Positions 36,701-63,449 of a stretch of 64,000 nt of DNA are shown one piece after another (positions within the stretch are counted from its first letter, which is position 1; every line of letters starts with the position of its first letter). The notes beneath the pieces were generated by a model. It was not told where the DNA came from. It saw only the letters and a program-made list of their open reading frames with translations, and searched no databases. The DNA lies in the NCBI GenBank assembly GCA_012800735.1, contig JAAZIU010000023.1, positions 37,622 to 101,621 of the forward strand, given 5' to 3'. Position numbers and translations under genes: made by a program. This DNA comes from Clostridiales bacterium (GTDB lineage Bacteria; Bacillota; Clostridia; Oscillospirales; CAG-272).

Positions 36701-36712
36701 TTCTCCTTCCGT

Positions 36713-37555: not shown

Positions 37556-37733
37556 TTAAACGACTCCAATCTGTAATAAATTCGTGTATTTTGCCTTAAA
37601 AAATAATTCCGGCAGAAAATGCATACATAATTATGATACACTTTTTCGCCGGCATAGTCAAACGTATTTTGTAAATATTTGTCAGCTGCGTGCGTTAAGC
37701 GGCAAAACAGGCGTTATTCCGTCTCGTCGGAAA

Positions 37734-44657: not shown

Positions 44658-46094
44658 ATGAAACGCCTATCAATAATCCTCGCGCTGCTGCTATTCCTTT
44701 CGGTTATTGCCTCCTGCGGAGACAAACAGTCAGCCGATTATAAAGCCGTTGACACTACCACCGATTCTTCTTCGACAACCGATGCCGAGACGGAAGCCCC
44801 CTTTGGCGACGACCTTCCTAATGACCTTGATTTCAAAGGTGAGAAAGTAAGAGTACTTATCTTCGAAAACGGTAACAACCCGAGCGACGGTTGGTGCAAC
44901 TACATCGATATGGATGAGTCGAACGGAGATATACTGAACGATTCGGCCGTACAGCGGAATATGGAAGTCGAAACTCGATTGAATATCGAAATAGAATGTA
45001 TCGAAGTCGGCGTAGTTACAGATAGAGTGGCTAAATCGGTAACAGCGGGGGAAGACGCGTATGACGTTGCAATACCTTTCTCGAATGATGTTGTTACCAA
45101 GCTTATCACTTCAAACATGCTCTATGACGTCTCGTCGCTGCCGTATGTCGATCTTTCAAAACCTTACTATTCAAAAGACTCGTATGAGACCTTTGCGATA
45201 AACGGCAAACATTATCTTTTCGCTGGGGCTTATACCTATCCGCTTTACAGTACCGTTTCCTGGCTGTTCAATAAGGACGAATGGGAGAATCGCGGACTTG
45301 ATGATGCATATAACACGGTATACGACGGCAAGTGGACTTTGGACTATGTCGACACCATAATAAAGGACACATATATCGACCTTGACGGCGACGGCAAGAA
45401 GAATGATAAGGACTTTTACGGCTTCACCTCAGTAATCCCCTATATGCTGTCGTATATATATTACGGATGCGGTCTGAAGGGCGTCTCGCTTGAAAGCGAC
45501 GGATTTATATTCGATTACGGCGATGAAAGAGCCTCAAGGGTAATGGACAAAATAATCGCTCTTTCAAATCATCCCGACACATATTACTATAAATCGGGAT
45601 GGGAAAGTTTCTTTGCCGGCAATTCGCTTATGCTGCTTTATGGCTCTAGTCTAATGTATCTGCGGCAGCTCGAATTCGACTTCGGAATGCTACCTATGCC
45701 GAAATTTGATGAAACGCAGGATGACTATGTATCATATATGTGCGGAGGTATAACTTTTGTTCCTTCCACAATACAGCGCCCCGAGCTTGTCGGCGCTGCG
45801 GTCGAGGCGCTCTTTTCGTCATCCGGCAGATACATGGTAGACGCTTTTATCATGAACTACGCCGAGCAGAAAGTTCTCCGCGACGATCATTCGATTACGA
45901 TGTTCAGGCTCATCAACACCAATGTCAAGTATGATTTTACCTATATCAGTCCGTCAAAAAAGATCGAAGCAAACACACTTTTGAACAAAGTAATCTCCGA
46001 GCGTCAGAATATCCTCGCGTCCGAATGGGCGAAAATACAAGAAAGCGTCGAGGCCGAATTTGCCGAATTTTACGAAAATTACTGTAAGGGCTGA
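44658..46094 (+). CDS. Extracellular solute-binding lipoprotein (tandem copy A)
   Basis: Lipobox IASC; SBP motifs; near-duplicate of the next gene. Confidence 0.87.
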   Translation: MKRLSIILALLLFLSVIASCGDKQSADYKAVDTTTDSSSTTDAETEAPFGDDLPNDLDFKGEKVRVLIFENGNNPSDGWCNYIDMDESNGDILNDSAVQRNMEVETRLNIEIECIEVGVVTDRVAKSVTAGEDAYDVAIPFSNDVVTKLITSNMLYDVSSLPYVDLSKPYYSKDSYETFAINGKHYLFAGAYTYPLYSTVSWLFNKDEWENRGLDDAYNTVYDGKWTLDYVDTIIKDTYIDLDGDGKKNDKDFYGFTSVIPYMLSYIYYGCGLKGVSLESDGFIFDYGDERASRVMDKIIALSNHPDTYYYKSGWESFFAGNSLMLLYGSSLMYLRQLEFDFGMLPMPKFDETQDDYVSYMCGGITFVPSTIQRPELVGAAVEALFSSSGRYMVDAFIMNYAEQKVLRDDHSITMFRLINTNVKYDFTYISPSKKIEANTLLNKVISERQNILASEWAKIQESVEAEFAEFYENYCKG

Positions 46095-46180
46095 GTTTGT
46101 TCCGTCGGATATAAGACCGGATGCGGTTCTATAATTCAATCAGATTATCAAAATATGTAAAAAATAAGAAAGGAACCAAA

Positions 46181-47620
46181 ATGAAACACCTATCAATAAT
46201 CCTCGCGCTGCTGCTATTACTTTCGGTCTTCGCTTCCTGTGGGGGCGAGCAGTCTGCCGATCACAAAGCCGTTGACACTACCGCCGATCCGTCTTCGACG
46301 ACCGAAGCGGAGACGGAAAATCCCTACGGCGACGATCTCCCCGAAGACCTTGATTTCGAGGGCGAGAAAGTAAGAGTACTTATCTTCGAAAACGGCAACG
46401 ACCCGAGCAACGGCTGGTGCTGCTATATAGATATGGACGAGTCGAACGGAGAGATACTGAACGACTCGGCAGTACAGCGGAATATGGAAGTCGAAACCCG
46501 CTTGAATGTCGAGATAGAGTGTATCGATGGCAGCGGAGTCGTCGATCGGGTAGCAAAGTCGGTCACCGCAGGTGAAGATGCCTATGACATTGCGATACCT
46601 TTCTCGACTGAAATCCTTACCAAGCTTATCACTTCAAATATGCTCTATGACGTCTCGTCGCTGCCGCATATCGACCTTTCAAAACCTTACTACACAAAAG
46701 ACTCATATGAGACATATGAGATAAACGGCAGACATTATCTCTTTTCCGGCGCATACACCTATCCGCTTTACAGCACCGTTTCCTGGCTGTTCAACAAGGA
46801 CGAGTGGAAAAATCGCGGAATTGACGACGCCTACCAAACGGTATACGACGGCAAATGGACTCTCGACTATGTCAGCGCCGTGATAAAAGACACTTATATC
46901 GACCTTGACGGCGACGGCAAGAAGGGGAATAATGATTTTTACGGCTTTACAACCGTAGTCCCTTACATGCTTTCTTATATTTATTACGGCTGCGGAATGA
47001 AGGGAGTTTCGCTTGAAAGCGATGGATTCAAGTTCGATTACGGCGACGAAATGACTTCCAAGGTCATGGACAAGATTATCGCCCTCGGAAATCATCCGGA
47101 TGCGAAATATTACAAATCAGGTTGGGACAACTTCTTTGCCGGAAATTCGCTTATGTTGCTCTACGGCTCCAGCCTTCCGGGACTGCGCCAGCTCGAATTC
47201 GACTTCGGAATGCTTCCGATGCCGAAATACGATGAAACGCAGGACGATTATGTCTCATATATGTGCGGAGGCATCACCTGTGTTCCTTCCGCCATTCAGC
47301 GTCCCGAGCTCGTCGGCGCCGCAGTTGAAGCGCTTTTCTCGTCATCCGGCAGATACATGGTAGACGCCTTTATCATGAACTACGCCGAACAGAAAGTTCT
47401 CCGGGACGATCACTCGATTACGATGTTCAGGCTTATCAATACCAACGTAAAATACGACTTCACCCGCTATATCAGCCCTTCGAAAAAGATCGAATCAAAC
47501 GAGCTAATAAACAAGGTGATAAACAAGGGCGAAAACGTTCTCGCGTCCGAATGGGCGAAGATACAAACAAGCGTTGAAGCCGAATTTGCCGACTTCTACG
47601 AAAATTACTGCTCGGGCTGA
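46181..47620 (+). CDS. Extracellular solute-binding lipoprotein (tandem copy B)
   Basis: ATG at 46181 after the RBS gaaaggaa; lipobox FASC; long identical stretches with copy A. Confidence 0.87.
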   Translation: MKHLSIILALLLLLSVFASCGGEQSADHKAVDTTADPSSTTEAETENPYGDDLPEDLDFEGEKVRVLIFENGNDPSNGWCCYIDMDESNGEILNDSAVQRNMEVETRLNVEIECIDGSGVVDRVAKSVTAGEDAYDIAIPFSTEILTKLITSNMLYDVSSLPHIDLSKPYYTKDSYETYEINGRHYLFSGAYTYPLYSTVSWLFNKDEWKNRGIDDAYQTVYDGKWTLDYVSAVIKDTYIDLDGDGKKGNNDFYGFTTVVPYMLSYIYYGCGMKGVSLESDGFKFDYGDEMTSKVMDKIIALGNHPDAKYYKSGWDNFFAGNSLMLLYGSSLPGLRQLEFDFGMLPMPKYDETQDDYVSYMCGGITCVPSAIQRPELVGAAVEALFSSSGRYMVDAFIMNYAEQKVLRDDHSITMFRLINTNVKYDFTRYISPSKKIESNELINKVINKGENVLASEWAKIQTSVEAEFADFYENYCSG

Positions 47621-48735: not shown

Positions 48736-49506
48736 TTGAATAAAACGGAAACTCAACTTCCCGAAACATCAAAAAACGCAGAAAAAAACAGCCCGAAGGC
48801 AAAACCACGGGCGGATATTCCGTCGATTGTACTGATGGTGTTAACGGCCGTGCTTATAACCATAGCCGGCATCTATTACAAACAGCATCCGCTACACATC
48901 CTGCCGCTCTATGTTTCGCTCGTAATCGGAGCGCTGCAGGCAAAGGCAAACCGATTTGCAAGCCTTATGGGCGGGATAAATTCTGTTTTGTATGCCATTG
49001 TCTATTTTTACCTTGGGCTTTACGCCTCGGCTCTGTATGCCATTCTCTTTTCCTGTCCGGTTCAGCTTGTCACCTTTGTGCGCTGGAATCAAAAGAAATA
49101 CGGTTCGTCAACGGTATTCAGGAAAATGACGTCAAAACAGCGTATTGTCGTATCTGTATCGTTTGTCTTTTCGGTGGCGGCGGTCATGTTGGTCTTAAAT
49201 CTACTGAAATCAGATTACAGCTTCATCGATTCGCTTTCATCGCTGATGGGAATACTCATCTCGTTTCTCACCATGTTCGCTTTCATTGAGTATACATGGC
49301 TGATGCTGCCGAGCGGCATTATCGGTATCTTCCTCAACATCGCGACGATGAAAGCGCATCCGCAGCAGCTTACCTATCTCATATTCTCGTTTTATTCGCT
49401 TATCTGCGTCACAAGAGCCTTTTTCATGGTGCTTAAGCTTTACAAAGAGCAGCAGCTAAAAAAAGACACGGAAAAACCTGCGGCTGATTTAATTAAAACA
49501 GAATAA
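48736..49506 (+). CDS. PnuC-like (nicotinamide riboside transporter family) membrane transporter
   Basis: About 7 TM helices; GGINSVLYAIVYFYLGLYAS, FVRWNQKK, FRKMT and FIDS patterns typical of PnuC; TTG start 1 nt after the sialidase stop. Confidence 0.7.
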   Translation: MNKTETQLPETSKNAEKNSPKAKPRADIPSIVLMVLTAVLITIAGIYYKQHPLHILPLYVSLVIGALQAKANRFASLMGGINSVLYAIVYFYLGLYASALYAILFSCPVQLVTFVRWNQKKYGSSTVFRKMTSKQRIVVSVSFVFSVAAVMLVLNLLKSDYSFIDSLSSLMGILISFLTMFAFIEYTWLMLPSGIIGIFLNIATMKAHPQQLTYLIFSFYSLICVTRAFFMVLKLYKEQQLKKDTEKPAADLIKTE

Positions 49507-50578: not shown

Positions 50579-52246
50579 ATGGTTGATAAAATTATCATTA
50601 ACGAAGAAAACGAAGCCGGAAATCTTGATGAAACAGAAATTATTACCGATGCGAAACATGATGAATCCATTCAGGGGGAAATCCGGGCGGATGATATTTT
50701 AAACGAAAACGAAGAACAAACGGCTGAAGATACGAGGACAGACAACGGTTCAGGCGAATCAGAGATTTCAAAAAAGAAGCTTGAAAAAGAGGAAATCAAG
50801 CGTCAGATAAGCGAGGCTCAGAAAAAGCTGGGACTGCTTGCGCAGAAAGTCAAAGAAGCCAAGCTGCCGGTTATAATTCTTTTTGAGGGCTGGGGCGCTT
50901 CCGGTAAAGGATACCTCGTCAGCAAGCTCATTGAAGAGATTGACCCGCGTGGATTCAAGGTTTATACAATAGGTCCGAGATCGGCGGACGAACGCCGTTT
51001 TCCGATGATGAAGCGATACTGGGAAAAAATCCCGGAATACGGGCGGATGTCGTTTTTTGTCCGAAGCTGGTATCGCGATGTCACTCTTTCGCGATTCGAG
51101 GAGGAAATCGACAAAAAAGAAATTGACGCCCGTTTCCGCGAAATCCTTGATTTCGAGTCACAGCTGGCGGACGACGGATATCTTATAATCAAATTCTTCC
51201 TCCGTCTTTCAAAAAAAGATCAGAGAAAACGCTTTGAAAAGCTGGAAAGCAATAAGGCGACCGCCTGGAGAGTGACAAAAGCCGACTGGGAACACCACCG
51301 CAGATACGACGACCATCTGCACGCTTTCAACGAGATGATCGACCGCACAGACCGGGATTATGCTCCCTGGGTTCAGATCGACTCAAAAGATCGCCGCCGC
51401 GCTATACTGACCGCGCTTAACTGCACTATTGATCTCGTAACCGGAGCGCTGGCTATGAGAACGTCGCCGAAGCCGCAATCAAAGCGCGCGTTAAGACTTG
51501 ATGAAACCATTATACCGAACCCCATCCCGAAACTCGCCGAGGTTGACCTTTCTCCGACAATAGACGGGGAACTCTACCGTAAGGAGCTGAAACGGCTTCA
51601 GGAACGTCTTTTTGAGCTGCACAACTGGCTTTATCAAACCAAAACGCCTATGATTATCGTTTACGAAGGGCAGGACGCGGCAGGAAAGGGCGGAAATATC
51701 AAGCGCGTCACCGAAGGTCTCGACCCCCGCGGCTACGCGGTGAATCCCGTCGCCGCGCCGACAGCGCCGGAGCTTTACCGCCAATATCTCTGGCGATTCT
51801 GGATTACCCTTCCGAAGGACGGACATATCGCCATCTACGACAGAAGCTGGTACGGTCGGGTAATGGTTGAAAAGATTGAGGGATTCTGTACAGAAGAACA
51901 ATGGAAGCGCGCATACTCCGAGATTAACCACTTCGAGCACAGCCTCAGAGGCTGGGGAGCGATAATAATTAAATTCTGGCTTCAGATTGACAAAGACGAG
52001 CAGCTTGTCCGCTTCACCGATCGTCAGAACACTCCGGAGAAGCAGTGGAAAATAACCGAGGAAGACTGGCGCAACCGCGCCCGCTGGGACGATTATGAAG
52101 TTTCTGTAAATGAAATGCTGCGGCTAACCAATACCGACTTTGCCCCCTGGCATATAATCGAATCAAACGACAAGCGCTACGCGCGGATAAAGACCCTGCG
52201 TCTTCTTGTCGCCGCCATTGAAAGAGAAATGGCCGAGCGCAGGTGA
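50579..52246 (+). CDS. Polyphosphate:AMP phosphotransferase (class II PPK2, two domains)
   Basis: Two PPK2 domains (EGWGASGKG...RSWY and EGQDAAGKG...DRSWYGR, WKITEEDW); acidic N-terminal extension. Confidence 0.9.
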   Translation: MVDKIIINEENEAGNLDETEIITDAKHDESIQGEIRADDILNENEEQTAEDTRTDNGSGESEISKKKLEKEEIKRQISEAQKKLGLLAQKVKEAKLPVIILFEGWGASGKGYLVSKLIEEIDPRGFKVYTIGPRSADERRFPMMKRYWEKIPEYGRMSFFVRSWYRDVTLSRFEEEIDKKEIDARFREILDFESQLADDGYLIIKFFLRLSKKDQRKRFEKLESNKATAWRVTKADWEHHRRYDDHLHAFNEMIDRTDRDYAPWVQIDSKDRRRAILTALNCTIDLVTGALAMRTSPKPQSKRALRLDETIIPNPIPKLAEVDLSPTIDGELYRKELKRLQERLFELHNWLYQTKTPMIIVYEGQDAAGKGGNIKRVTEGLDPRGYAVNPVAAPTAPELYRQYLWRFWITLPKDGHIAIYDRSWYGRVMVEKIEGFCTEEQWKRAYSEINHFEHSLRGWGAIIIKFWLQIDKDEQLVRFTDRQNTPEKQWKITEEDWRNRARWDDYEVSVNEMLRLTNTDFAPWHIIESNDKRYARIKTLRLLVAAIEREMAERR

Positions 52247-52277
52247 CAAGCAAATATAAGAACACAATAAAATAATC

Positions 52278-52306
52278 AACGGCACAAATTTCTGTGCCGT
52301 TTTTAT
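52278..52306. terminator. Terminator between convergent genes
   Basis: aacggcaca/tgtgccgtt stem with a T-tract. Confidence 0.7.
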
Positions 52307-52343
52307 TTATGTGTCGGGTATAATCAGTATAAAGAGATTAAAT

Positions 52344-53501
52344 TCAACTTTCAATTTGATTTTTAAAATCGAGCAAGACTTCGATATACTCATCGGGAAG
52401 GTCGGCATGTATATCGTGATTTGATTTAAAGCCGCCGACATATCTGCTGTCAGGAATTAAATCAACGACTCTCTGCGCGTCAATTTCGTCCATAGCGGCA
52501 AGCAATATACCGTTTTTGTCATAATAGCCGGGCTTTGTCATTTCGCTCGGCGCTACGTGCATCACAACTGTCGGCGCCTTGATATTTTTCAGGATTTCTT
52601 CGGTGTCAAATCCGTCAAACCAGGAAAAGTCGTAAAATGTCACACCGAACCTCAAATCGTAATCGGCGGTTCCGTCCTGCATATTGGCGTTGAGCGCGTA
52701 TATTGCGTTAACTCCCAATTCAGGCGGATAATACCATATTTTCGGAATTTGCCCGGGATGTTTTTTGAGATATTTCAGGGCGGGTTCTTTTATGATCATA
52801 TCCCACGCGCGGGGATCGTTTGCGTTGAAAACTTCTTTCATGTAGTCATGTTCCAGAGAATATTCCATGAAGGATTTTATCTCATCCTGGTTGAGATAAT
52901 CATACATATTCTTAAAACCTATCCATGAAATAGTCTTCTCCGCTCTCCCGGGAAGAGTGGAAAAGAAGGGACCGTCTTCCAGGACAGCGGCTGTAATGCA
53001 GTCCGGCGCCTTTGCCGAAACATAAGCTGCGAGCAGCGCTCCGGAAGAGTGACCGGAGATATAAACCTTTTCCCCAATTATATTTTCAATAAACCAAATG
53101 ATATCACTGCCTATCGCCGCAGCGGTATATTTTTCGGGATTTTTCGATGATTTCCCGTGACCGTAATAATCGAGCGCGTAAACATGAAATTCCTTTGATA
53201 ATTTCGGCAGCGCCTTTGCATAGTCAAAACAGGTTGTCTGCTGACCGTGAAGCAGAAGAAGCGCGGGACCGTTGTCCGGACCTTCGATATAATAAATCTC
53301 CGACCCGTCGCTCAATTTTTCGGTATCTTCGGTAAACCCTAACTTATACCCCTTTTTCTTCAAATAGTTCGTATTCAAAATGTCATGATTCAGGTTTCTG
53401 TATGCAAAGAGACTTAAACCTGCCGCAATTATCAGCAAAACGATAACTACTGCCAAGATTACCTTAATCATTTTATTCATTCTCAGCTCCTGCTTTGCCA
53501 C
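52344..53501 (-). CDS. Membrane-anchored alpha/beta hydrolase
   Basis: N-terminal TM helix; LLHGQQ, DYYGHG and the nucleophile elbow GHSSG. Confidence 0.85.
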   Translation of the reverse strand: MAKQELRMNKMIKVILAVVIVLLIIAAGLSLFAYRNLNHDILNTNYLKKKGYKLGFTEDTEKLSDGSEIYYIEGPDNGPALLLLHGQQTTCFDYAKALPKLSKEFHVYALDYYGHGKSSKNPEKYTAAAIGSDIIWFIENIIGEKVYISGHSSGALLAAYVSAKAPDCITAAVLEDGPFFSTLPGRAEKTISWIGFKNMYDYLNQDEIKSFMEYSLEHDYMKEVFNANDPRAWDMIIKEPALKYLKKHPGQIPKIWYYPPELGVNAIYALNANMQDGTADYDLRFGVTFYDFSWFDGFDTEEILKNIKAPTVVMHVAPSEMTKPGYYDKNGILLAAMDEIDAQRVVDLIPDSRYVGGFKSNHDIHADLPDEYIEVLLDFKNQIES

Positions 53502-53538
53502 TGCTTAGCTCCGTCGGTTCAAAAAAGTACAACTGCGC

Positions 53539-54462
53539 TTATTTATGTTGATTTATGAAATCGTCAAGCGCCGCATCGATTTCCTCCCCGTGCCCCGTCA
53601 TCATGTGTCCGCCGTCGGGGAAGGTAACGAGCGTTAGATTCGGAAAGCGGTGCTTTGCCTTTTTCACCTTTTCAAAGCTTGCCACGGTATCATCTTCCGA
53701 GTGCAGAATCAAGACCGGCACTTTTAAATCTTCGATCGGATAATTATCAAAGTTCCTTTCCATATCCGGATTTGTCAGCTTTCCGTCCAAAATAACTCCG
53801 ATTTTTCTTTCGGAAATCGGCTGAATGCTTTTCACCGTTGAAGCCGGCATTCCCATCAGAGGGGGCATAAGCGGACTTATCAGATACATCGCATAATCTG
53901 AGAGCAGAGGTTCGGGAGGCGCCTGATATTCAAGAAAAGTCACCGGTTTTTCTGGAACCGGCATTGCCGAACAGAATAGAATCAATCCCTTTACCCGTTC
54001 CGGATAATCCAGCGCAAAACGAATGGCGGGAGTGCCTCCGGCGGAGGTTCCCAAAATAAAGACTTTTTCTATTCCGAGATAGTCAAGCAATTCGGCAAAC
54101 GCGGCGGCTTGTTCTGCCGGAGTACCGTCGCCTTTCACATCGGATCCGAGGTAACCGAATCGCGACGGCGCCAGCAGACGATTTTGCGGCTTCCTGTTTT
54201 TAACGCTGTCATACGCCTGATCATATCCGCCGAAAATACCGTGAACTGACAAGATAACCTCGCTCTCGCCGACATCGACATAAGTCATTGAGCCGTATGA
54301 CAGTTCAGCCGTCTTTGCTTCATATAACTCAAGGTTTTCCCTAACTTTATTCAGTCCGTAACCGCAGCGTATGCCCTGAATCAGAAAATACAAGGCGATT
54401 ATCAATAAAAGAGCGATTAGTAACCACTTCGCTATTCCGGCTTTTCTCTTTTCCGTTGTCAT
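53539..54462 (-). CDS. Membrane-anchored alpha/beta hydrolase
   Basis: N-terminal TM helix; VHGIFGG, GTSAG, HSEDD and GGH motifs. Confidence 0.85.
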   Translation of the reverse strand: MTTEKRKAGIAKWLLIALLLIIALYFLIQGIRCGYGLNKVRENLELYEAKTAELSYGSMTYVDVGESEVILSVHGIFGGYDQAYDSVKNRKPQNRLLAPSRFGYLGSDVKGDGTPAEQAAAFAELLDYLGIEKVFILGTSAGGTPAIRFALDYPERVKGLILFCSAMPVPEKPVTFLEYQAPPEPLLSDYAMYLISPLMPPLMGMPASTVKSIQPISERKIGVILDGKLTNPDMERNFDNYPIEDLKVPVLILHSEDDTVASFEKVKKAKHRFPNLTLVTFPDGGHMMTGHGEEIDAALDDFINQHK

Positions 54463-54595
54463 CTCAGCTTTTCTCCTTTTTGTCGTTCATGTTTGTTTTC
54501 TTGCGGGTGATAATCGCCTCAGTATCTATGTTTAATTATTGGTTAATCTTTCTGTTGTTTGAAATCGCATCTTGTTTGTTTCCGTATTTTTCACC

Positions 54596-56770
54596 TTACA
54601 TCCTGTTTTGCGAAGTCCTCCCTATAATCATATCCTGCCAGTGTTCGTCCAATGTCACAAACCGAGCCGACCAGCCGCTTATCCTGACTGCAAGGTTGGG
54701 ATATTTTTCCGGATGCAGCTTCGCGTCGATAAGCGCGGCCGCGTCTGCGACGTCTATCTGCAAAAAGAACCCGCCGAGGCGAATAAACGCTTTCATCAGC
54801 CCGACGAGGGCGTTTATGCCGTCTTCCCCCTTTACCGAGCCCGGATCGAGCTTTAAATCGAGAGCCGCTCCGGAAGCAAGCGCCGAGAAATCGATGTTGC
54901 AGGCGGATTTTATCACCGCTGACGCGCCTTTTACATCGGTGCCGGGAGTCGGAGCTATGTTGTTTGCTCTTATATAATGCTTTCCGTGACCGTCGGCGCC
55001 GGCGAGGCGGTTTTTCGCCCATTCAATCTGACGCCCGAAAGTCGAAAGTCCGGCGGGACGCAGTACCCCGCTGCGCTCTTTTGTCTTCGCCATTTCATCT
55101 GTAAAGTCCCGGACTATCCGACCGATTATTTCATCACATTCGGGATTGTCATTTCCGTAATATTCAAGGGAACGCGCGCGGGCGCGCAGCGCGCTGACAA
55201 ATTCAACTTCCGCCTCATCCGAGTCGTCTTCCGGCTGCCAGTCGTTGTGCAGTATCCGGCAGAGCTTCGGTAAGGTGACAAGCTTTTCGTCATAAACAAG
55301 TTTCTTTATCGCGTAAAGACAGTCGCAGAGGTCCGGCACCCCGCCGTAATGCAGGCTGTATGCGGTATAGACAGCCCCGCGGTTATAATATCCGAGCCCC
55401 GTTTCAATGCAGCCGTCGGTAAAGAGGGAAATCGCGGACATCGGCATATCCCAGCGGGCGAAGTTGTCGGCGCCGTCGTTCCATTCTTTGACCTGAACCG
55501 CCATCGCCTCTCTGAAAGTTTCATACAGCGATTCAAAATCGGGAAAATCGGGATATTCTTCGCCGCCGATATTCAGCGTTTTGTCCTGAAGAAGAGGGAA
55601 GATGTCAATCGGACAATAGGTAAAGCAGGTTTTTCCGGGAACTTGAACCTCCCAGCATCCGTCATTCGCGAAATTGCGGGCTTCGCTCAGCGAATAGCCG
55701 AATTTCACCATCGAATCGACAACAAGGTCGTTGTTGTATATCGCGGCGACGCCGGAGCCGTGCCGCATCACCCGCGCTATGGCTTCGTAAAGCTCCTGAG
55801 GCGAGTCATCCCGCATCCGGACTGCTATGGGAAAATCGGGAATCGGAAATTCCTCCGTTACCGAAAGCACCATGTAACTTATGTCCGAGATAAACTCATT
55901 ACCCTCGTCATCGTCTCCGCAGAGAACGATATTCTGATAATGCTGAGCGTCGCCCGAACCGCGGCCTTCAAGCCGTATCCACTCGCATCCTTTTATCATG
56001 AAGTGGCAGATAAGCGTCCTGGCTTCGTCATAAGTGATTTTCCCGGCTTTGAGATCGGCTTTGTAATACGGATCCAGGATCAAATCTATCCGCCCGATCC
56101 CCGGCCAGTTGCCGAGCAGCCGCAGAAAAGCGAAGCAGAACCAAAGAGACTGAATTGCCTGTCTGAACGACGACGGCGCTTTAAAAGGAACCGGTTCAAG
56201 GTTTTCGTACAGTTCACGCCAATATTTCTGCTCATCGCCGGAAGTGTTTTCGATATTTGCTTTAATCTCGCAAAGATACCTGCCGTGCCATATTCTCATC
56301 GCAGAAATGGTATTCTTCATCGATGTCAGCATTGATATCTGATTTGAGTCAAGACCGTCGTCCGACAGCCTTTTGTCTATTCTTGTTTCATAGCTGTCAA
56401 TCCCTTCCTTGACCGCCCGCTCAAAGCCGGAGGTCAGGTGGTTGATCCCCGAAAGAGGATATTCGCCCTTAAAGCTTGCGGGCAGCCGCGCGCCTACAGC
56501 GTCGCCCAATGTCGCAGAACCGCAGAGCAGTTCATTCGGCGTGAAGCGTATCGGACAGCGGCGGACTATTTCATTCACCGCCGCGTCGTATTTTTCATAA
56601 CTCGAGAGTTTCTCAAATCCGGCAATTCCGTCAAGCGAAACGCAAGGAGTAAGGCTTGTCTCCCGACCATATTTTCCGAGCAGCGATTCATGAGCGAATC
56701 GCCGCGTCTTTTCGTCCGATATAACCGGACGAGAGCCGGGAAATGAGGAATAAAACGTATATTCTGACAT
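54596..56770 (-). CDS. Glycyl radical enzyme (PFL superfamily), unassigned class
   Basis: C-terminal glycyl radical motif LAVRISGWSARF; active-site loop NDGCWEV; GRID, YGNDN and PTPG GRE motifs. Confidence 0.92.
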   Translation of the reverse strand: MSEYTFYSSFPGSRPVISDEKTRRFAHESLLGKYGRETSLTPCVSLDGIAGFEKLSSYEKYDAAVNEIVRRCPIRFTPNELLCGSATLGDAVGARLPASFKGEYPLSGINHLTSGFERAVKEGIDSYETRIDKRLSDDGLDSNQISMLTSMKNTISAMRIWHGRYLCEIKANIENTSGDEQKYWRELYENLEPVPFKAPSSFRQAIQSLWFCFAFLRLLGNWPGIGRIDLILDPYYKADLKAGKITYDEARTLICHFMIKGCEWIRLEGRGSGDAQHYQNIVLCGDDDEGNEFISDISYMVLSVTEEFPIPDFPIAVRMRDDSPQELYEAIARVMRHGSGVAAIYNNDLVVDSMVKFGYSLSEARNFANDGCWEVQVPGKTCFTYCPIDIFPLLQDKTLNIGGEEYPDFPDFESLYETFREAMAVQVKEWNDGADNFARWDMPMSAISLFTDGCIETGLGYYNRGAVYTAYSLHYGGVPDLCDCLYAIKKLVYDEKLVTLPKLCRILHNDWQPEDDSDEAEVEFVSALRARARSLEYYGNDNPECDEIIGRIVRDFTDEMAKTKERSGVLRPAGLSTFGRQIEWAKNRLAGADGHGKHYIRANNIAPTPGTDVKGASAVIKSACNIDFSALASGAALDLKLDPGSVKGEDGINALVGLMKAFIRLGGFFLQIDVADAAALIDAKLHPEKYPNLAVRISGWSARFVTLDEHWQDMIIGRTSQNRM

Positions 56771-56790
56771 AATATCACCCTGAATTTCTG

Positions 56791-57540
56791 TTAGTCCGTG
56801 TATCCCAAAGCGGCGGAAATCTGCGCGGCGGTCGTTTTAACCGCCTCTGATTTTTCTTCCGCGAATGTTTTAATATCCGAGTAAACGGTCGCGGTGGAAA
56901 TTCCCGTCGAGGCGATTACTGAGCCTTTATAATCGAAAATCGGCGCGGCAAGACATATGATGCCGTAGCTGCCCTCCTCGTTGTCTTCGGCGTATCCGTT
57001 TTCCCTTATCAAAGAAATCTGTTCTCCGAAGACTTTGCTGTCGGTTATTGTGTTTGAAGTCCGCGGTTTAAGTTCGCTTTCGCAGTATTGCCGCTGTTCT
57101 TCCTCGTCGGAATAAGCGAGCAGCACCTTTCCGGGGGCGGAGCAGTGAAGCGGATATTCCCCGCCGACCCGTCCCGCGACGACTATGTCATGCGTTGAAT
57201 CAAGATGCTGTATATACAGTACGTTTTTTCCGTGCTTCACTCCGATAAAGCAGCTGTCTCCGGTTTTCTCCCATAGCCTGGCGAGAAAGACGCCGCTTTC
57301 CTTATAAAGCGAAGTTCTTGAAAGCGCGCGGCTGCAAATCCTAAACGGTTTCAGGGTAAGCGAATACCCGTCGCCACGCCGGGCAATCCATCCCTGACCG
57401 CAGAGCGCGCCTAATATCCTCGACACCGCGTTTTTGTTTATCCCCGTTAAATTGCTGATTTCGGTTATTCCGAGACCGTCATTGCAAGAAAGCGCTTCAA
57501 GAATCGTGGCAGCGTAATCGACTGCCGGTGCTTTAGACAT
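56791..57540 (-). CDS. IclR family transcriptional regulator
   Basis: N-terminal HTH (GITEISNLTGINKNAVSRIL); PLHCSAPGKVLLA, GYAEDNEE and CLAAPIFD motifs. Confidence 0.92.
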   Translation of the reverse strand: MSKAPAVDYAATILEALSCNDGLGITEISNLTGINKNAVSRILGALCGQGWIARRGDGYSLTLKPFRICSRALSRTSLYKESGVFLARLWEKTGDSCFIGVKHGKNVLYIQHLDSTHDIVVAGRVGGEYPLHCSAPGKVLLAYSDEEEQRQYCESELKPRTSNTITDSKVFGEQISLIRENGYAEDNEEGSYGIICLAAPIFDYKGSVIASTGISTATVYSDIKTFAEEKSEAVKTTAAQISAALGYTD

Positions 57541-57552
57541 ATTATATACCTT

Positions 57553-59028
57553 TCAGTCTTCGATTTCAAGCAGTTTATCAATTACTTTTTGATACTTTTT
57601 AGTCATGGAACTTTCCGATTTCGCCCAGTATGATGAAAAATCAGTTTTGCCTCCCTTTATAAGCGCCGCCACATCCCAGACAAAGCTGATGCTGCCGAGA
57701 TAGCCCAGATTATATGTCCTTGATTTCAGGATGATATCAAGCATATCCTGTGTTTCCTTGTCGCGGGAGTATTTTTCTTTAAGAGCGACATCGAAATACG
57801 CCGGCAAAACCACCTGATAGGAAGCCGCCGCCATCCCTTCAAGCACCTGCCTGAGCCGTTCGTCATCTGAGGTGTTAGTTATCGGAACTGTAAGGATTGG
57901 TGATGACCCGCCGACATGATTGAGATAATCCGGCTGGTTCTCATCGAATTTCGGGTAGGGAATGATGCCGAAGTCCGACTCCATATCGCGAAGAAGCTCG
58001 ATGTTCCGCAGAATTATTGCATAAATGTAAATCCGGTCTTCTTTGAAATAATCCAGACCCTCATACAAATCAAGCCCAATCTGAATTCCGTCGGATGAAT
58101 TCACCTTTGCGAGCTTTTCCAGCGTAGTCTGAATACGATTCTGATCCATATTCATATCAATAACGCCGTCGTCGAGTATTTTTTCGCCAAGAAGATCGCA
58201 GGAAAACAGCCAGTTGTTTGTCATCGACGCCGGGTCCTGAATATAACCGAAAAGGTCATTCTTCGGTTTCATAACCCCGTCTCCGTCTATATCGGTATAT
58301 ATCGCGGTCGCCTGTTCGGCGAAGGTATCGAGAGTCCATTTGCCGTCGAAGACAAGGGTGTAGATGCTTTCAAGACCGTTGTCTTCGGCAAGCTTTTTGT
58401 TATAAATCATCGCGAGCGTATCATCTATCTCGCTTATAAGGATAGCGCCGGACATCAGATACAGCTTGCCGCATACCGAAAGATTGTCGCGGCAGTTTGA
58501 GTTCCAATAAACCGTATCAAGATTGAGACCGGGAATTTTATTCCAATCGCGGACAAGTCCTTCGGAAGCTATTGTTATCGCCGCGAATTTTGTATACATT
58601 CCGTGAAGGTCGTAATCGTCGCTGCCGGACATCGCCGACTTCGTTGCCGCGCTGAACACATCATCTACCGGACAGGCGATAATGTTTACCCCGAGCCTGT
58701 CGGCTATCATGCTGTTTCGGCGGAAGATAGCGTCGTTTATAACGTCTCCGGTTTCGGCTTCGACCCAGATTTCCTGAGTGAATCGGTTTGTCGCATTGAT
58801 TCCGGCAGAAAGGGTCAGAACTCTAAAGTTATAGCTACCGAAGTCGGCTTCTTGAATTTCGTCAAACGGCTCTTTCGTGACTTCCGCCGTGGTTGTTTCG
58901 TCAGCTTCGGTCATAATCTCCTTTGATTCCGGAGTTGCGTCTTCTTTGCCGCACCCTAAAAAAGACGAAAGGAGCATAATGAACAAGATAAATATTGCCG
59001 TTACGCGAATTGTTGTTTTGCGCTGCAT
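57553..59028 (-). CDS. Extracellular solute-binding lipoprotein
   Basis: Lipobox FLGC; DAIFRRN, DIDGDG and FGIIPYPKFDE motifs. Confidence 0.85.
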   Translation of the reverse strand: MQRKTTIRVTAIFILFIMLLSSFLGCGKEDATPESKEIMTEADETTTAEVTKEPFDEIQEADFGSYNFRVLTLSAGINATNRFTQEIWVEAETGDVINDAIFRRNSMIADRLGVNIIACPVDDVFSAATKSAMSGSDDYDLHGMYTKFAAITIASEGLVRDWNKIPGLNLDTVYWNSNCRDNLSVCGKLYLMSGAILISEIDDTLAMIYNKKLAEDNGLESIYTLVFDGKWTLDTFAEQATAIYTDIDGDGVMKPKNDLFGYIQDPASMTNNWLFSCDLLGEKILDDGVIDMNMDQNRIQTTLEKLAKVNSSDGIQIGLDLYEGLDYFKEDRIYIYAIILRNIELLRDMESDFGIIPYPKFDENQPDYLNHVGGSSPILTVPITNTSDDERLRQVLEGMAAASYQVVLPAYFDVALKEKYSRDKETQDMLDIILKSRTYNLGYLGSISFVWDVAALIKGGKTDFSSYWAKSESSMTKKYQKVIDKLLEIED

Positions 59029-59068
59029 TGTAAATCCCCCTTTAATACACTTATAAGCCTTGGTTTCT

Positions 59069-59101
59069 GTTATATATATGAAATACCGTTATATATATAA
59101 C
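59069..59101. promoter_or_regulatory. Tandem palindromic operator (candidate IclR site)
   Basis: Perfect 14-bp palindrome gttatatatataac (59088-59101) and near copy gttatatatatgaa (59069-59082), directly downstream of the -10 box. Confidence 0.65.
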
Positions 59102-59130
59102 ATTATACAATGCAGATGGTGATTTGTCAA
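59102..59130 (-). promoter_or_regulatory. Sigma-A promoter of the SBP-IclR-GRE operon
   Basis: Perfect TTGACA-17bp-TATAAT with extended TG on the minus strand. Confidence 0.85.
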
Positions 59131-59233
59131 TCCCGATATGTTGAAATATCAAGGTAATATTACACAAAAACAAGCGGGAATAATTGTTAAAACCGACACA
59201 ATTCCCCGAAAAACAAAATCAATCCGATAATAC

Positions 59234-59262
59234 TTGACATTATCCCGCCAAAGTCGTATAAT
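59234..59262 (+). promoter_or_regulatory. Divergent sigma-A promoter
   Basis: TTGACA-17bp-TATAAT. Confidence 0.8.
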
Positions 59263-59297
59263 CATTCTGATAATACAAATCAAAAAGGAAAATCATT

Positions 59298-60659
59298 ATG
59301 AAAATTCCCAATCACAACCCATCTCTTTACAACTACGAAATCTTTCCGAAAGTCGCCGAACTGAATCGGCTTACCTCTTTCAAAGCAAGAGGACTCGGAA
59401 TCGACAACGCTCTGACACCGGGGCGGGAATACACAATTTATATCATCCCGCGCGAGGAAAACAATTCCTCCGTTCTTTTAAGCATCAGCGATTTTACTAA
59501 ATATGACAGCGTCTGCGCAGCAGCCGACGAGAACGGCGGAATTGAATTCGAATACACCTTCAAAAGGGAGCAGATATATACTCTGCGCCTTACCGACAAA
59601 GACGACGGCGGAAAAATCCGCGTAATTAACAATTTCCGCATCTTCTGCGCCGCCCCCGACCTTTACGCAAGAACGCCGATGCGCGGCAATCTCCATTGCC
59701 ATACCTGCAAATCGGTCGACGGACACGAAGATCCCTATCTTGCCGCGGCGACATATCGCCGCGCCGGGTTTGACTTCCTTGCGATAACCGATCACCACAA
59801 TGTGGATGGTTCGGTATATGCTATTGAGAAGAGCAAAAACATTCCGAGCGAGATGAGCCTTTATTACGGCGAAGAAGTCCATGTCCCGAACGCATATATA
59901 CACGCGGTCAATGTCGGAGCTTTGCTGCCGGGCGGTATCGGGGTTGACAATTATTATCATGAAAACGAAGCTAAGGTAAAAGCTGAAGTCGCAGAAATTG
60001 CCGCAGAATACAAAGACCACCTGCCTGAAAATATCGAGCCGTTCGATTTTGCCTGGCGCAAATGGATCGCCGACACTATCCACGAGTATGGCGGTATCGC
60101 CATTTTGGCGCATCCGTTCTGGGAATGGGACGCCAACAACACCCGCGACGATGTCTTCCGATATCTTGCAAAAGAAAAGATATACGACGCGGCGGAGATA
60201 CTCCACGGTCAGGAGGAGGGCTGCCCTGACGCTCATATGGCGGCGGCGTTCTGGAACGATATGCGCGCCGATGGCATCTTCATAAGCCCGGTCGGCGTCG
60301 ACGACGCGCATATGCGGTATTTCCATTGGAGCTACGAAAGCGCATTCAACTGGACATCAACGATGATTTTCGCAAAAGACCCCTCTTTTGACGGCTTTGC
60401 TGAGGCTATAAAGAACGGCTATTCCGTCGCGACCGAGTCATACGAAGACGGTCCGGAACACATTGTAGGCACTTACCGTCTGACGAAATACACTCTTTTC
60501 CTATTGGATCAGTATTTCCCGTACCACGACGAACTTTGCTTCGAAGAAGGCTGCCGGATGCGCGACTACTATCTGGGCGAGGAGAAGTCAAGGGAAGTGC
60601 TTGAGATGATAAACGGGAGAGTCGCCGATTATCAGAAGAAATTCTTCGGGCGGGAATAA
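59298..60659 (+). CDS. PHP-domain metallohydrolase with an N-terminal beta-rich extension
   Basis: GNLHCHTCKSVDG, AITDHH, GEEVH, LAHP and GVDDAH motifs. Confidence 0.8.
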   Translation: MKIPNHNPSLYNYEIFPKVAELNRLTSFKARGLGIDNALTPGREYTIYIIPREENNSSVLLSISDFTKYDSVCAAADENGGIEFEYTFKREQIYTLRLTDKDDGGKIRVINNFRIFCAAPDLYARTPMRGNLHCHTCKSVDGHEDPYLAAATYRRAGFDFLAITDHHNVDGSVYAIEKSKNIPSEMSLYYGEEVHVPNAYIHAVNVGALLPGGIGVDNYYHENEAKVKAEVAEIAAEYKDHLPENIEPFDFAWRKWIADTIHEYGGIAILAHPFWEWDANNTRDDVFRYLAKEKIYDAAEILHGQEEGCPDAHMAAAFWNDMRADGIFISPVGVDDAHMRYFHWSYESAFNWTSTMIFAKDPSFDGFAEAIKNGYSVATESYEDGPEHIVGTYRLTKYTLFLLDQYFPYHDELCFEEGCRMRDYYLGEEKSREVLEMINGRVADYQKKFFGRE

Positions 60660-60712: not shown

Positions 60713-62380
60713 ATGTTCAGTTTTATCCACACCTACACCGCCGATACCGTAGAGGGGCTTTTCAAACAGGGACTTTTCCGCAAAGGCGACGGCCTTAAAA
60801 TGATGCATAAGAGCTATCTGCCGAGTGAGTATCAATTCAACGAGATGGGAGCCGTCGGCGGAAAGCTGTATAATACTTTAAAATCACTCCGCTGTCCGTT
60901 CTATATCGACCGGTTTCAGGGCGGCATCGGTCTGCCGTGGCATTATAACTATTCGCCGGAGCTTGTAGAGGAATACCGCAGGCTTCTTGGCGACAACTTC
61001 TGGGGCTGGCAGATGCACGAGTGGGCATCCAACTACAACAGCGACCGCGGGCGCGTCATCGAAGCGTATGAAAAATACGGCGTCGCCGACGGCAGCCGCT
61101 CAAAAGAAAGCTTCTGGGAGAATGTCATATCCGAAAAAATCGCTCTCTTTCTCGAAGCTCTGACGCGGGAAGAATGGTCAAAGAACCGTATCCCGCAAAA
61201 CCGGGCGGAATTCATCGCCGACATATACGAGCTTTACCGTCTGAGAATGGAGATGACCGGCGGGCAGCTAATCCCGGCGGACAGCTATTATATGGCGCCG
61301 AAAATAGAGCTTGCCGCCGGCACAAGGCTGCTGCTCCCCGAAGTCGGCTGGCAGATACCGAATATGCGCCTCCAGCTCGCTTATTATCGCGGAATGGCAA
61401 AGGCGTATTCCGCCCGTCTCGGCGTTTATTACGAATGCTGGGGAAGAACGGAAGGCTACGGACTTACTATCCCCTATTCACTTCGCGAAGGACAGGATGA
61501 ATGGATCGAAAATCAGCTTACAACCGGCAGCGGCGCTGACAGGAGCTTTGAAGAGAGGGAAAACGGCGGCAGCTCGCGCAATCTTCAGGCAAGGATTTTC
61601 AGATACGCCTATCTTGCCGGCGCGACCGCAATAGGCGAGGAATACGGCGTCTGCAACACCTTCCGGAATCTCGGCGATTTCGAACTCAGCATTTACGGTC
61701 AGGTTAAAAAGAAATTCCTAAACTTCACCGAAGAGCTGCCCTGTCCCGGAAAGACCTATACCCCGATAGCGATAGTCCTGCCGGAAAATCTTCCGGTGCT
61801 TGATGTCGTCCTTCGCGACAACTATATCAACTACCCCGAAAGCGACGACTCATACCCGCTTCCGGCAGAGACTTGGAAGCAGATTACGCGGACGCTGCGC
61901 CCCATCTTCGGCGAAACCGGCAGTCACGGCAATATGAGTCACGTTATAAAGAACGGCGGTCTGCCCGACGTTTTCGACATAATCCACGCGGACACCCCCG
62001 GACTTGACAAATACGAATATCTCATCAATCTGACCGGAGATACCGGATTTGCGGCAAAACACAAAAACATCGTAAATCCGGAAGAAGTAAGCCAAATACT
62101 CGATACCCTCCTCCCCTGCCGCGTAGATGAGCGGCTTCATGCAATCTACAACCGCACCGAAGACGGCTGGCTTGTCGGCATATTCAACAACGACGGGGTG
62201 CAGTACGACAACTTCAAAGGCGATATCTTCCTTTCCGAGGCGGATATCAGAACCGAGATAAAGCTGAACGGATATAAAATAATCTCGGTGATTAACGGCG
62301 ATATCGAACATTCCGATGGAAGATTCTTCCTCGATATGCCGGCGGGCAGCTGGAAAATAATTAAGCTTGCCGCAGAATAA
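60713..62380 (+). CDS. Hypothetical protein, possibly a glycoside hydrolase-like TIM barrel
   Basis: 555-aa ORF with RBS aaggag. WQMHEW, YYECWG and GEEYG patterns are suggestive only; it lies between a PHP hydrolase and galM. Confidence 0.55.
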   Translation: MFSFIHTYTADTVEGLFKQGLFRKGDGLKMMHKSYLPSEYQFNEMGAVGGKLYNTLKSLRCPFYIDRFQGGIGLPWHYNYSPELVEEYRRLLGDNFWGWQMHEWASNYNSDRGRVIEAYEKYGVADGSRSKESFWENVISEKIALFLEALTREEWSKNRIPQNRAEFIADIYELYRLRMEMTGGQLIPADSYYMAPKIELAAGTRLLLPEVGWQIPNMRLQLAYYRGMAKAYSARLGVYYECWGRTEGYGLTIPYSLREGQDEWIENQLTTGSGADRSFEERENGGSSRNLQARIFRYAYLAGATAIGEEYGVCNTFRNLGDFELSIYGQVKKKFLNFTEELPCPGKTYTPIAIVLPENLPVLDVVLRDNYINYPESDDSYPLPAETWKQITRTLRPIFGETGSHGNMSHVIKNGGLPDVFDIIHADTPGLDKYEYLINLTGDTGFAAKHKNIVNPEEVSQILDTLLPCRVDERLHAIYNRTEDGWLVGIFNNDGVQYDNFKGDIFLSEADIRTEIKLNGYKIISVINGDIEHSDGRFFLDMPAGSWKIIKLAAE

Positions 62381-62426: not shown

Positions 62427-63449
62427 ATGTCAATCACGAAAACCCATTACGGAAAAATGCCCGACGGCAGCGATGTATTTGCCTATACTCTTACGAATGA
62501 CAGCGTAGCTTCGGTAAAAATACTCAATTTAGGCGGGATAGTCGAAAGCATCATTGTGCCGGACAAAAACGGCAATTTCGACGACATCTGCTGCGGCTTC
62601 GACACGGTAGACGGCTACCTCAACGGCGGCGGATATTTCGGCGCCCTGGTCGGCCGCTGCGCCAACCGCATAGGCGGCGCTCGCTTCACCCTCAACGGCG
62701 TTGAATATCAGCTTGCCAAAAACGACGGCGAAAACCACCTTCACGGCGGAGATATCGGCTATAACCGGCGTATCTGGGATGTCGAATCGATCGAAGGCGG
62801 CGGCGGTAAGCCGGACAGACTGATTCTTTCTCTTGTAAGCCCGGACGGAGAGGAAAATTACCCCGGCAGAGCGGAAATAAAAGCCACTTACAGCTGGATT
62901 GCCGGAAATGTCCTTTCGATACATTACGAAGCCGTCTGCGACAAAGACACTGTAATGAATCTTACCAACCACAGCTATTTCAACCTTGAAGGCATCGGGG
63001 GTGGCGACGTCCGCGAAAACGAGCTTTTTGTCGCGGCGGTATATATGACGCCGGTCGACGAAGGTCTCATCCCGACAGGAGAGATAAGAGCCGTTGAAGG
63101 CACCGAATATGATTTTCGGGAAAGACGCGGGATAGAGATACCGCTTGACAATAATTTCTGCCTTGACATGAATCGCGAAGACGGTCCGGCGGCGGTGCTT
63201 TATTCCCCGAAAACCGGCAGAAAGATAACTGTTTATACCGACCAGCCGGGAATCCAGATATACAACGGCGTAATGATGAACGGAGACGTTCCCTTCCGCG
63301 GCGGGGTGCCGCAGCGGCCTTTCCATGCGATTGCGATGGAGACACAGGTCTGGCCGGACGCCCCAAATCAGCCCGATTTCCCGTCAGCCATACTTCGCGC
63401 AGGCGAGAAATACGATACAACAACCACATATGTTTTCGGAGTTGAATAA
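62427..63449 (+). CDS. galM: Aldose 1-epimerase (mutarotase)
   Basis: GRCANRI, HLHGG, NHSYFNL and METQ motifs. Confidence 0.92.
   Translation: MSITKTHYGKMPDGSDVFAYTLTNDSVASVKILNLGGIVESIIVPDKNGNFDDICCGFDTVDGYLNGGGYFGALVGRCANRIGGARFTLNGVEYQLAKNDGENHLHGGDIGYNRRIWDVESIEGGGGKPDRLILSLVSPDGEENYPGRAEIKATYSWIAGNVLSIHYEAVCDKDTVMNLTNHSYFNLEGIGGGDVRENELFVAAVYMTPVDEGLIPTGEIRAVEGTEYDFRERRGIEIPLDNNFCLDMNREDGPAAVLYSPKTGRKITVYTDQPGIQIYNGVMMNGDVPFRGGVPQRPFHAIAMETQVWPDAPNQPDFPSAILRAGEKYDTTTTYVFGVE

Follow-up and report, generated by a model that had tools for sequence, protein, structure and literature searches.

The 64,000-nucleotide stretch of DNA analysed here (the window; positions 37,622 to 101,621 of contig JAAZIU010000023.1, assembly GCA_012800735.1, from an uncultured Clostridiales bacterium of a biogas reactor) carries a gene for a compact glycyl radical enzyme (GRE) directly downstream of genes for a solute-binding protein (SBP) lipoprotein and an IclR-family regulator. 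Profile scores and sequence identity place this GRE in an uncharacterised clade outside every characterised class, and the gene is not a relic. We think it rather probable that the enzyme is a dehydratase-type eliminase acting on a hydroxylated, carbohydrate-derived small molecule, and that it belongs to a working catabolic operon. We put forward much more tentatively the wider proposal that the SBP, the IclR regulator and the GRE share one carbohydrate-derived compound in a new anaerobic radical catabolic reaction, with a single promiscuous activating enzyme (activase) serving six GREs.

The enzyme, its clade and its catalytic residues

Three minus-strand open reading frames (ORFs) follow one another in the order SBP lipoprotein, IclR regulator, GRE, spaced by 12 and 20 bp, behind a perfect sigma-70 promoter at 59130-59102. 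The first-pass annotation, which was made from the DNA letters, had described both the close packing of these genes and the promoter, and the coordinates bear it out on each point. The parts of main concern are the following.

57553-59028, minus strand: SBP-like lipoprotein gene, 491 aa (ORF; lipobox)
56791-57540, minus strand: IclR-family regulator gene, 249 aa (PF09339 and PF01614)
54596-56770, minus strand: compact GRE gene, 724 aa (PF02901 and PF01228)
59102-59130, minus strand: operon sigma-70 promoter TTGACA-17-TATAAT, 12/12 consensus match
59069-59101, minus strand: probable IclR operator overlapping the expected transcription start (palindrome GTTATATATATAAC and a second ATATATATAAC box)
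56438-56440, minus strand: His111, counterpart of glycerol dehydratase His164 and propanediol dehydratase His166 (HMMER alignment)
55649-55660, minus strand: Cys loop GCWE, with Cys372 as predicted thiyl radical site, Glu374 as predicted base and Trp373 as clade signature (translation)
54671-54685, minus strand: glycyl radical loop RISGW, with Gly699 (translation)

The 724-aa protein combines a barrel like that of pyruvate formate-lyase (PFL; PF02901 at 1e-83) with a glycine-radical domain (PF01228 at 3.6e-20). Its AlphaFold2 (AF2) model (pLDDT 91.4, pTM 0.91) shows the standard GRE barrel; in Foldseek, propanediol dehydratase, CutC, glycerol dehydratase, HypD, HpyG, YbiW and PflD all lie at about the same distance from it (TM 0.80-0.84), and sequence identity to the solved eliminases and isomerases is 19-23%. 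No NCBIfam cut-off is reached: the best equivalog is HypD, at 261 bits against 1100, and the broad PFL2/glycerol dehydratase subfamily TIGR01774 (252 against 678.2), CutC (217 against 1050), the PflD-type NF007437 (223 against 1109) and the HpsG/HpfG, IAD and HPAD equivalogs (in list order 215/1000, 185/1000, 175/1100 and 173/1150) all score below theirs. Pyruvate formate-lyase was ruled out by the GCWE loop, which has a single Cys and no Cys-Cys pair, and by TIGR01255 (77 against 994); membership of any known GRE class was ruled out by the NCBIfam scores together with the low identity to all solved classes. The protein had been called an unclassified GRE with RISGW and GCWE motifs in the first pass, and so it remains: neither scores nor identity cluster it with a characterised class, and translation places both motifs as listed above.

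The clade consists of compact GREs of ~710 aa with the signatures NDGCWE, GNWPGIGRID and VRISGWSARF, and is monophyletic relative to the other GREs of the genome. More than 120 database clusters fall within it at 45-67% identity to this GRE, and at least 598 species-representative genomes carry FANDGCWE or VRISGWSARF. The hosts are mostly gut, rumen and digester Clostridia, with a few Armatimonadota, Phycisphaerae and Anaerolineae, and include one cultured isolate, Hydrogeniiclostridium mannosilyticum (ASD2818, locus L029). According to a 2026 review, whole GRE clades are still without tested function (PMC13450708).

We surveyed the gene neighbourhoods of the best 80 clade loci from these at least 598 genomes, counting adjacency at the 57 loci away from contig edges. 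Clustering recovered an AraC-GRE-activase cassette, in which an activase of ~300 aa lies directly downstream of the GRE and a divergent AraC-family regulator upstream, and no other recurrent neighbours. The counts were as follows.

All loci: activase adjacent in 36/57, SBP-like gene adjacent in 7/57
The 23-member subclade holding this GRE: activase adjacent in 6/17, SBP-like gene adjacent in 7/17
All other loci: activase adjacent in 30/40, SBP-like gene adjacent in 0/40

No activase gene was found in the window, in agreement with the earlier description of an operon without one, and this lineage has lost the adjacent activase. The absence holds for this locus, however, and not for the family, whose members usually have both the adjacent activase and the AraC regulator. 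One relative is an anaerobic-digester metagenome-assembled genome (locus L022), whose GRE is 94% identical and which is syntenic for the PHP, SBP, GRE, two hydrolase and PPK2 genes.

Residue conservation was judged over 35 members of the GRE family at 46-67% identity. Invariant among them are V695, R696, G699, W700, A702, R703 and F704 of the Gly loop, N369, D370, G371, C372, W373 and E374 of the Cys loop, His111, R580 and a series of aromatic residues (W222, W264, W373, F383, Y385, F578 and W584). In HMMER alignments of the GRE to 1R8W and 5I2A, GCWE lines up with the GCVE of propanediol and glycerol dehydratases, and the following positions correspond.

C372/E374: glycerol dehydratase C433/E435
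H111: glycerol dehydratase H164 (propanediol dehydratase H166)
Y278: glycerol dehydratase Y339
P223/G224, inside the invariant GNWPG: glycerol dehydratase H281/S282
S576: glycerol dehydratase Y640
Deleted in this GRE: the loop with glycerol dehydratase D447

The residues H281/S282, D447 and Y640, which we take to be the substrate anchors of glycerol dehydratase, are not kept. Because C-x-E and the His are retained and these anchors are replaced or deleted, the enzyme would seem to have kept the machinery of a dehydratase-type eliminase around a rebuilt, aromatic-rich substrate pocket. In glycerol dehydratase Glu435 is the base and His164 the acid that protonates the leaving hydroxyl (PMC13450708). 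The C-x-E motif is kept in all GRE eliminases and isomerases (PMC13450708) and, being shared by the isomerases, is not exclusive to eliminases.

Taken together, Cys372, Glu374 and His111 point to a 1,2-eliminase of the dehydratase type, and the eliminase-type reading of the first-pass annotation is consistent with the invariant Cys-x-Glu and with the conserved His at the position of glycerol dehydratase His164. In the reaction that we propose, the Cys372 thiyl radical would take a hydrogen from a carbinol carbon, Glu374 would deprotonate the hydroxyl on that carbon, His111 would protonate the neighbouring oxygen leaving group, and the product radical would regain a hydrogen from Cys372.

The solute-binding protein and the IclR regulator

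The 491-aa protein has the lipobox LGCGK. Its own sequence gives no match in Pfam, to SBP_bac_1 and SBP_bac_8 or otherwise, even at an E of 10, and only chance matches among PDB sequences; several homologues at 30-51% identity carry PF13416 or PF01547. The AF2 model (pLDDT 91) has a two-lobe fold that matches family-1 sugar SBPs with a Foldseek probability of 1.0 and E of ~1e-13, among them Lmo0181 and SBPs of the arabinobiose, maltodextrin, raffinose and UgpB types. Because of the lipobox, the domains of the homologues and the confident model, we assign the protein, by its predicted fold, as a divergent family-1 (sugar-type) ABC solute-binding protein. The carbohydrate-type SBP proposed at first is thus supported by fold, lipobox and homologue domains, but not by a Pfam or PDB match of its own sequence.

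Orthologues of this SBP connect the GRE with the regulator. In L102 and L103 they are 51-53% identical (528-537 bits), outscore the best paralogue within the genome (464 bits) and adjoin GRE orthologues of ~53% identity. In L105 and L106, SBP orthologues of 57-64% identity lie directly downstream of IclR orthologues of 54-56% identity, with no GRE nearby. This makes the SBP a hub: depending on the genome, its orthologues adjoin a GRE orthologue or follow an IclR orthologue. The IclR-SBP pairs (L105 8393-12267, L106 7048-11872) were also seen next to other transport-related genes: in one of the two genomes the pair adjoins an EutH-family permease gene, and in the other a second SBP-like gene and a PnuC-like transporter gene.

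The genome contains ~136 paralogues of this ~490-aa SBP-like lipoprotein, which occupy 198 kb (7.5% of 2.64 Mb) and include 31 tandem pairs; examples in the window are at 41693-43159, 44658-46094, 46121-47620 and 57553-59028, the last being the gene under study. There are only 19 ABC permease (BPD_transp_1) domains in the genome, and a permease is found within 6 kb of only three SBP paralogues. Shared permeases, sensing and glycan capture are all possibilities for so many orphan SBPs, and nothing relevant on orphan-SBP expansions was found in the literature. The idea that SBP lipoproteins feed PnuC-like transporters was dropped, as the genome has only one PF04973 gene; this PnuC-like gene is in the window (48736-49506), where it closes a glycan locus rich in SBP genes.

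The regulator has an HTH_IclR domain (PF09339 at 1.7e-09) and an IclR_C effector domain (PF01614 at 1.6e-42), and no second IclR gene was found in the genome. L022 has no IclR gene at this point: 24 bp separate its SBP stop from the GRE start. In the window, the IclR ORF and a short leader sit exactly between flanks that match L022 (...ctgaa on one side, cagaaa... on the other). The matching flanks mark the IclR gene as a precise, lineage-specific insertion that separates the SBP gene from the GRE gene.

All three copies of the 11-mer ATATATATAAC in the window lie within 59069-59101, just downstream of the -10 box, and shuffled sequences give none. The copies form the palindrome GTTATATATATAAC. 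Among 106 fetched loci the 11-mer was found once, in L105, downstream of the promoter and ahead of the SBP orthologue of the IclR-SBP pair; L022 has neither the IclR gene nor the boxes, and the 12-mer TTATATATATAA had no match across the 106 loci. The ATATATATAAC boxes are likely the operator of the IclR regulator. In our model the IclR repressor would occupy them at the transcription start and thereby autoregulate the operon, and the IclR-operator module would be one that belongs with the SBP and has been placed inside an SBP-GRE operon in this genome.

Activation, expression and substrate

The genome (2.64 Mb, ~93% complete) was searched throughout for activases with TIGR02494. One match lies above the cut-off (348.7 bits), a PFL2-type activase gene at C10:19515-20462, which has no adjacent GRE and sits between the gene for a hypothetical membrane protein and an unrelated 500-aa gene. 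Weaker TIGR02494 matches were rejected as activases on reading their sequences, which are those of an NrdG-like 200-aa protein and of unrelated radical-SAM/ferredoxin proteins. The C10 activase is 40-50% identical to the activases adjoining GCWE-clade GREs, about the same divergence as that of the GREs themselves. A congener has a TIGR02494 match at nearly the same contig position, which suggests conserved synteny.

Six GRE genes are present in the genome, with 20-31% mutual identity. All have a Gly loop and a Cys-x-Glu loop, and none reaches an NCBIfam cut-off. The five further genes are listed here; their Cys loops are GCVE, GCTE, GCIE, ACWE and TCVE, none of them is a PFL, and two of them adjoin SBP-like lipoprotein genes.

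C8:97775-100150: GRE gene
C8:104509-106596: GRE gene
C15:49744-51858: GRE gene
C15:80032-82041: GRE gene
C15:117737-119890: GRE gene

The excess of GREs over activases extends across the genus, at 6:1 here and at 7:2 and 3:1 in congeners. An orphan activase that resembles those of the clade, together with this genus-wide excess, makes supply in trans plausible, apparently as a trait of the genus. The GRE probably owes its activation to a gene at another place in the genome, and the orphan PFL2-type gene on another contig fits the first-pass view that the activase must come from a distance. The C10 activase would install the radical on Gly699 in trans, and would probably also serve the five other unclassified GREs.

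L022 likewise has no adjacent activase; in comparison with this relative, the GRE has a ratio of nonsynonymous to synonymous substitution (dN/dS) of 0.073 and the SBP one of 0.13. Many biogas and digester metagenomes contain the stretch, and RNA was seen in the assembled contigs of one biogas metatranscriptome run. One RNA contig covers 54737-56127 within the GRE gene, and another (56206-57535) runs from its 5' end through almost all of the IclR gene. Further contigs lie over part of the SBP gene and, at 53573-54567, over the first of two hydrolase genes downstream and most of its gap to the GRE. Over the promoter region (58912-59295) RNA depth is zero, and a DNA run is flat there at ~14x. The GRE gene is transcribed in the biogas reactor, and the data fit one transcription unit.

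A decaying relic, no longer activatable after the loss of its own activase, is highly improbable. The lineage does lack an adjacent activase, its six GREs share one activase gene, and the published cross-reactivity of GRE activases is narrow, all of which would suit decay. Set against this are the dN/dS of 0.073, catalytic motifs that are all intact, the Gly and Cys-x-Glu motifs kept in six of six GREs of the genome, transcription of the gene in the reactor and an orphan activase 40-50% identical to the clade's cognate activases. A genome without any activase, together with failure to form a radical, had been named at the outset as the sign of a relic, and the orphan gene shows that an activase is present here. 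We consider it unlikely, on different grounds, that the GRE acts as an isomerase, by ring opening or otherwise (like YbiW, PflD or HplG), converting an anhydro- or deoxy-sugar with no net dehydration or elimination. Isomerases too keep Cys-x-Glu, the model is no further from YbiW and PflD (TM 0.82-0.83) than from the dehydratases, many of the clade's invariants are aromatic, and a sugar-type SBP, a mutarotase and GH38, GH78, GH172 and GH39 genes are found near close relatives. The NF007437 score (223 against 1109) argues the other way, as does the lack of phosphotransferase system (PTS), kinase or aldolase genes conserved as partners. An isomerase and an eliminase would both fit the conserved His at the position of the dehydratase general acid, so this residue does not discriminate between them.

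It is also decidedly unlikely that this GRE is a divergent orthologue of the small-diol dehydratases (acting on glycerol, 1,2-propanediol or ethylene glycol), in which case the SBP and IclR would be uninformative on the substrate. Propanediol and glycerol dehydratases are indeed its best sequence and fold matches; His111, Tyr278, Cys372 and Glu374 match H164, Y339, C433 and E435 of glycerol dehydratase; the canonical AraC neighbour weakly resembles PocR; lactaldehyde-dehydrogenase-like and Fe-type alcohol dehydrogenase genes occur near two relatives; and the bulky Trp residues could shrink the pocket. These likenesses are outweighed, in our estimate, by the TIGR01774 score (252 against 678) and an identity of 22-23%, by the replacement of H281/S282 with Pro-Gly in GNWPG, the deletion of the D447 loop and the change of Y640 to Ser, and by the lack of conserved microcompartment or aldehyde dehydrogenase genes, no aldehyde dehydrogenase homologue having been found in the genome.

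We favour a dehydratase-type eliminase acting on a carbohydrate-derived compound. In this reading the SBP would capture the substrate extracellularly and the IclR repressor would respond to it; one compound, or a few closely related ones, would act as ligand of the SBP, effector of the regulator and substrate of the GRE. As a speculation, the membrane-anchored hydrolases may free the substrate from an extracellular ester. Near close relatives of the GRE are genes for a mutarotase (L024, L025), GH38, GH78, GH172 and GH39 glycosidases, a fucosidase and GFO/IDH/MocA oxidoreductases. Genes of these kinds abound in the organisms, and none is conserved clade-wide. The sugar or polyol substrate suggested by the first-pass annotation is made plausible by the sugar-SBP fold and by SBP orthologues that track both the GRE and the IclR gene, but its appeal to the divergent PHP and mutarotase genes is less secure, as these links recur only occasionally: a PHP gene is also near GCWE-clade GREs in L039 and L066, and an epimerase gene near the GRE in L024 and L025.

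In two other genomes (L103 17813-22145, L104 991-9829) a GCWE-clade GRE adjoins genes for a GntR/FCD regulator, a lactaldehyde-dehydrogenase-like protein, a split transketolase and Zn- and Fe-type alcohol dehydrogenases. For these two genomes the cluster may indicate what becomes of the GRE product. It was rejected as a partner here, since it is not conserved: no aldehyde dehydrogenase homologue was found in the genome, whose only split transketolase is 17 kb off (window 35738-37555).

Several observations weigh against the favoured model of the operon or against parts of it. Six GREs with differing Gly loops (RISGW, RVSGF, RVWGW, RIGGY) on one activase conflict with the limited cross-reactivity that has been reported, and in a ~93% complete genome a second activase could be missing. 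With ~136 SBP copies, adjacency is weak evidence of a link and some is expected by chance; the SBP-like genes near the GRE in L104, L025 and L031 score 136-182 bits and are therefore paralogues, not orthologues. There is no BPD_transp_1 permease gene at the locus, so that import by way of the SBP is putative, and no transporter or downstream enzyme is conserved as a pathway partner across the 80 loci. The RNA contigs come from one run and do not prove a single transcript, the assignment of His111 rests on sequence alignment, and all members of the GCWE clade are biochemically uncharacterised.

Set beside known systems, the enzyme would work like the GRE 1,2-eliminases and belongs to the GRE superfamily, outside each characterised class. 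With the propanediol dehydratase of Roseburia inulinivorans (5I2A/5I2G) and the B12-independent glycerol dehydratase of Clostridium butyricum (1R8W/1R9D) the enzyme shares the barrel (Foldseek E 1e-39 to 1e-42, TM 0.80-0.82), a Gly loop of the form RVxG[YW]SA, Cys-x-Glu followed by xQxPGKT, the general-acid His and the Tyr at the Y339 position. Unlike them, it is ~70-120 residues shorter at 22-23% identity, has Trp for Val in C-x-E and GNWPG for the GHS substrate loop, and has no microcompartment or aldehyde-processing genes nearby and no adjacent activase; it differs from glycerol dehydratase further in lacking the GWHD loop (D447) and in having Ser for Y640. The YbiW and PflD isomerases of anhydroglycolysis (8ID7, 8ID0) resemble it in Cys-x-Glu, in fold (TM 0.82-0.83), in a carbohydrate gene context and, as we infer for this GRE, in a sugar-derived substrate; they differ in sequence (20-21% identity), in having a PTS where this locus has an SBP lipoprotein, and in their aldolase partners, and no phosphate-binding site has so far been noticed in this GRE. 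With the cassette of its own clade, as in Hydrogeniiclostridium mannosilyticum L029, the GRE shares 45-67% identity and the same invariant motifs, but this locus and its nearest relatives have an orthologous SBP in place of the adjacent activase and AraC regulator, and the inserted IclR gene is found in this genome only. The regulator is like KdgR, an IclR-family repressor of sugar-acid catabolism, in its HTH_IclR and IclR_C domains and in an AT-rich palindromic candidate operator overlapping the promoter; unlike KdgR, it scores 154 against a cut-off of 275 (NF011671) and its gene lies inside the operon that it probably represses.

Uncharacterised GRE clades are themselves common. What is new here is the SBP hub, the precise insertion of the IclR gene, the association of ATATATATAAC boxes with that gene and a probable five-gene operon. 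Most loci of the clade give no clue beyond the AraC-GRE-activase cassette, and this one adds two soluble ligand sensors, the SBP and the IclR regulator. If these are tied to the GRE, the ligands of both could name the substrate and de-orphan the whole clade, and the reaction on a shared compound would be widespread in gut, rumen and digester Clostridia. One activase for six GREs would, if true, be a natural counter-example to the rule of one activase for one GRE. The 6:1 ratio also offers a natural test of activase promiscuity, poor activase behaviour being the main practical obstacle in GRE biochemistry.

Operon extent and neighbouring genes

From the GRE stop (54596) to the gene that follows (54462) we looked for a terminator-like site and found none, and the hairpin at 52278-52301 is the strongest such site within 52200-59400. 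The transcription unit probably comprises five genes, continuing into two membrane-anchored esterase genes, both of which are syntenic in L022 and not in more distant relatives. The three-gene operon of the first-pass annotation is therefore correct as to its three genes and probably too small as to the unit. The divergent PHP and mutarotase genes that it named are both present. The remaining features of the locus are as follows.

53539-54462, minus strand: alpha/beta hydrolase with N-terminal membrane anchor, probable operon gene 4 (PF00561/PF12697)
52344-53501, minus strand: second membrane-anchored alpha/beta hydrolase, probable operon gene 5 (PF00561)
52278-52301, both strands: bidirectional terminator-like hairpin, probable operon end (10-pair stem, then T-run)
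57541-57569, minus strand: promoter-like site TTGAAA-17-TATAAT, 11/12, stopping one base ahead of the IclR start codon
59234-59262, plus strand: divergent promoter facing the PHP gene, 12/12 consensus match
59298-60659, plus strand: PHP/CehA-McbA-like metallohydrolase gene, divergent (context)
60713-62380, plus strand: gene for an unassigned 555-aa protein, divergent unit (context)
62427-63449, plus strand: galactose-mutarotase-family epimerase gene, divergent unit (context)

No riboswitch or other RNA element was found at E <= 0.1 in 52000-60000. The promoter-like site at 57541-57569 may have arisen incidentally through the insertion, or may drive IclR-GRE from within the operon; its -10 box lies within the inserted DNA and is absent from L022. 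At 50579-52246 on the plus strand, convergent on the operon terminator, is a gene for a 555-aa protein with two PPK2 (polyphosphate kinase 2) domains, which is syntenic in L022.

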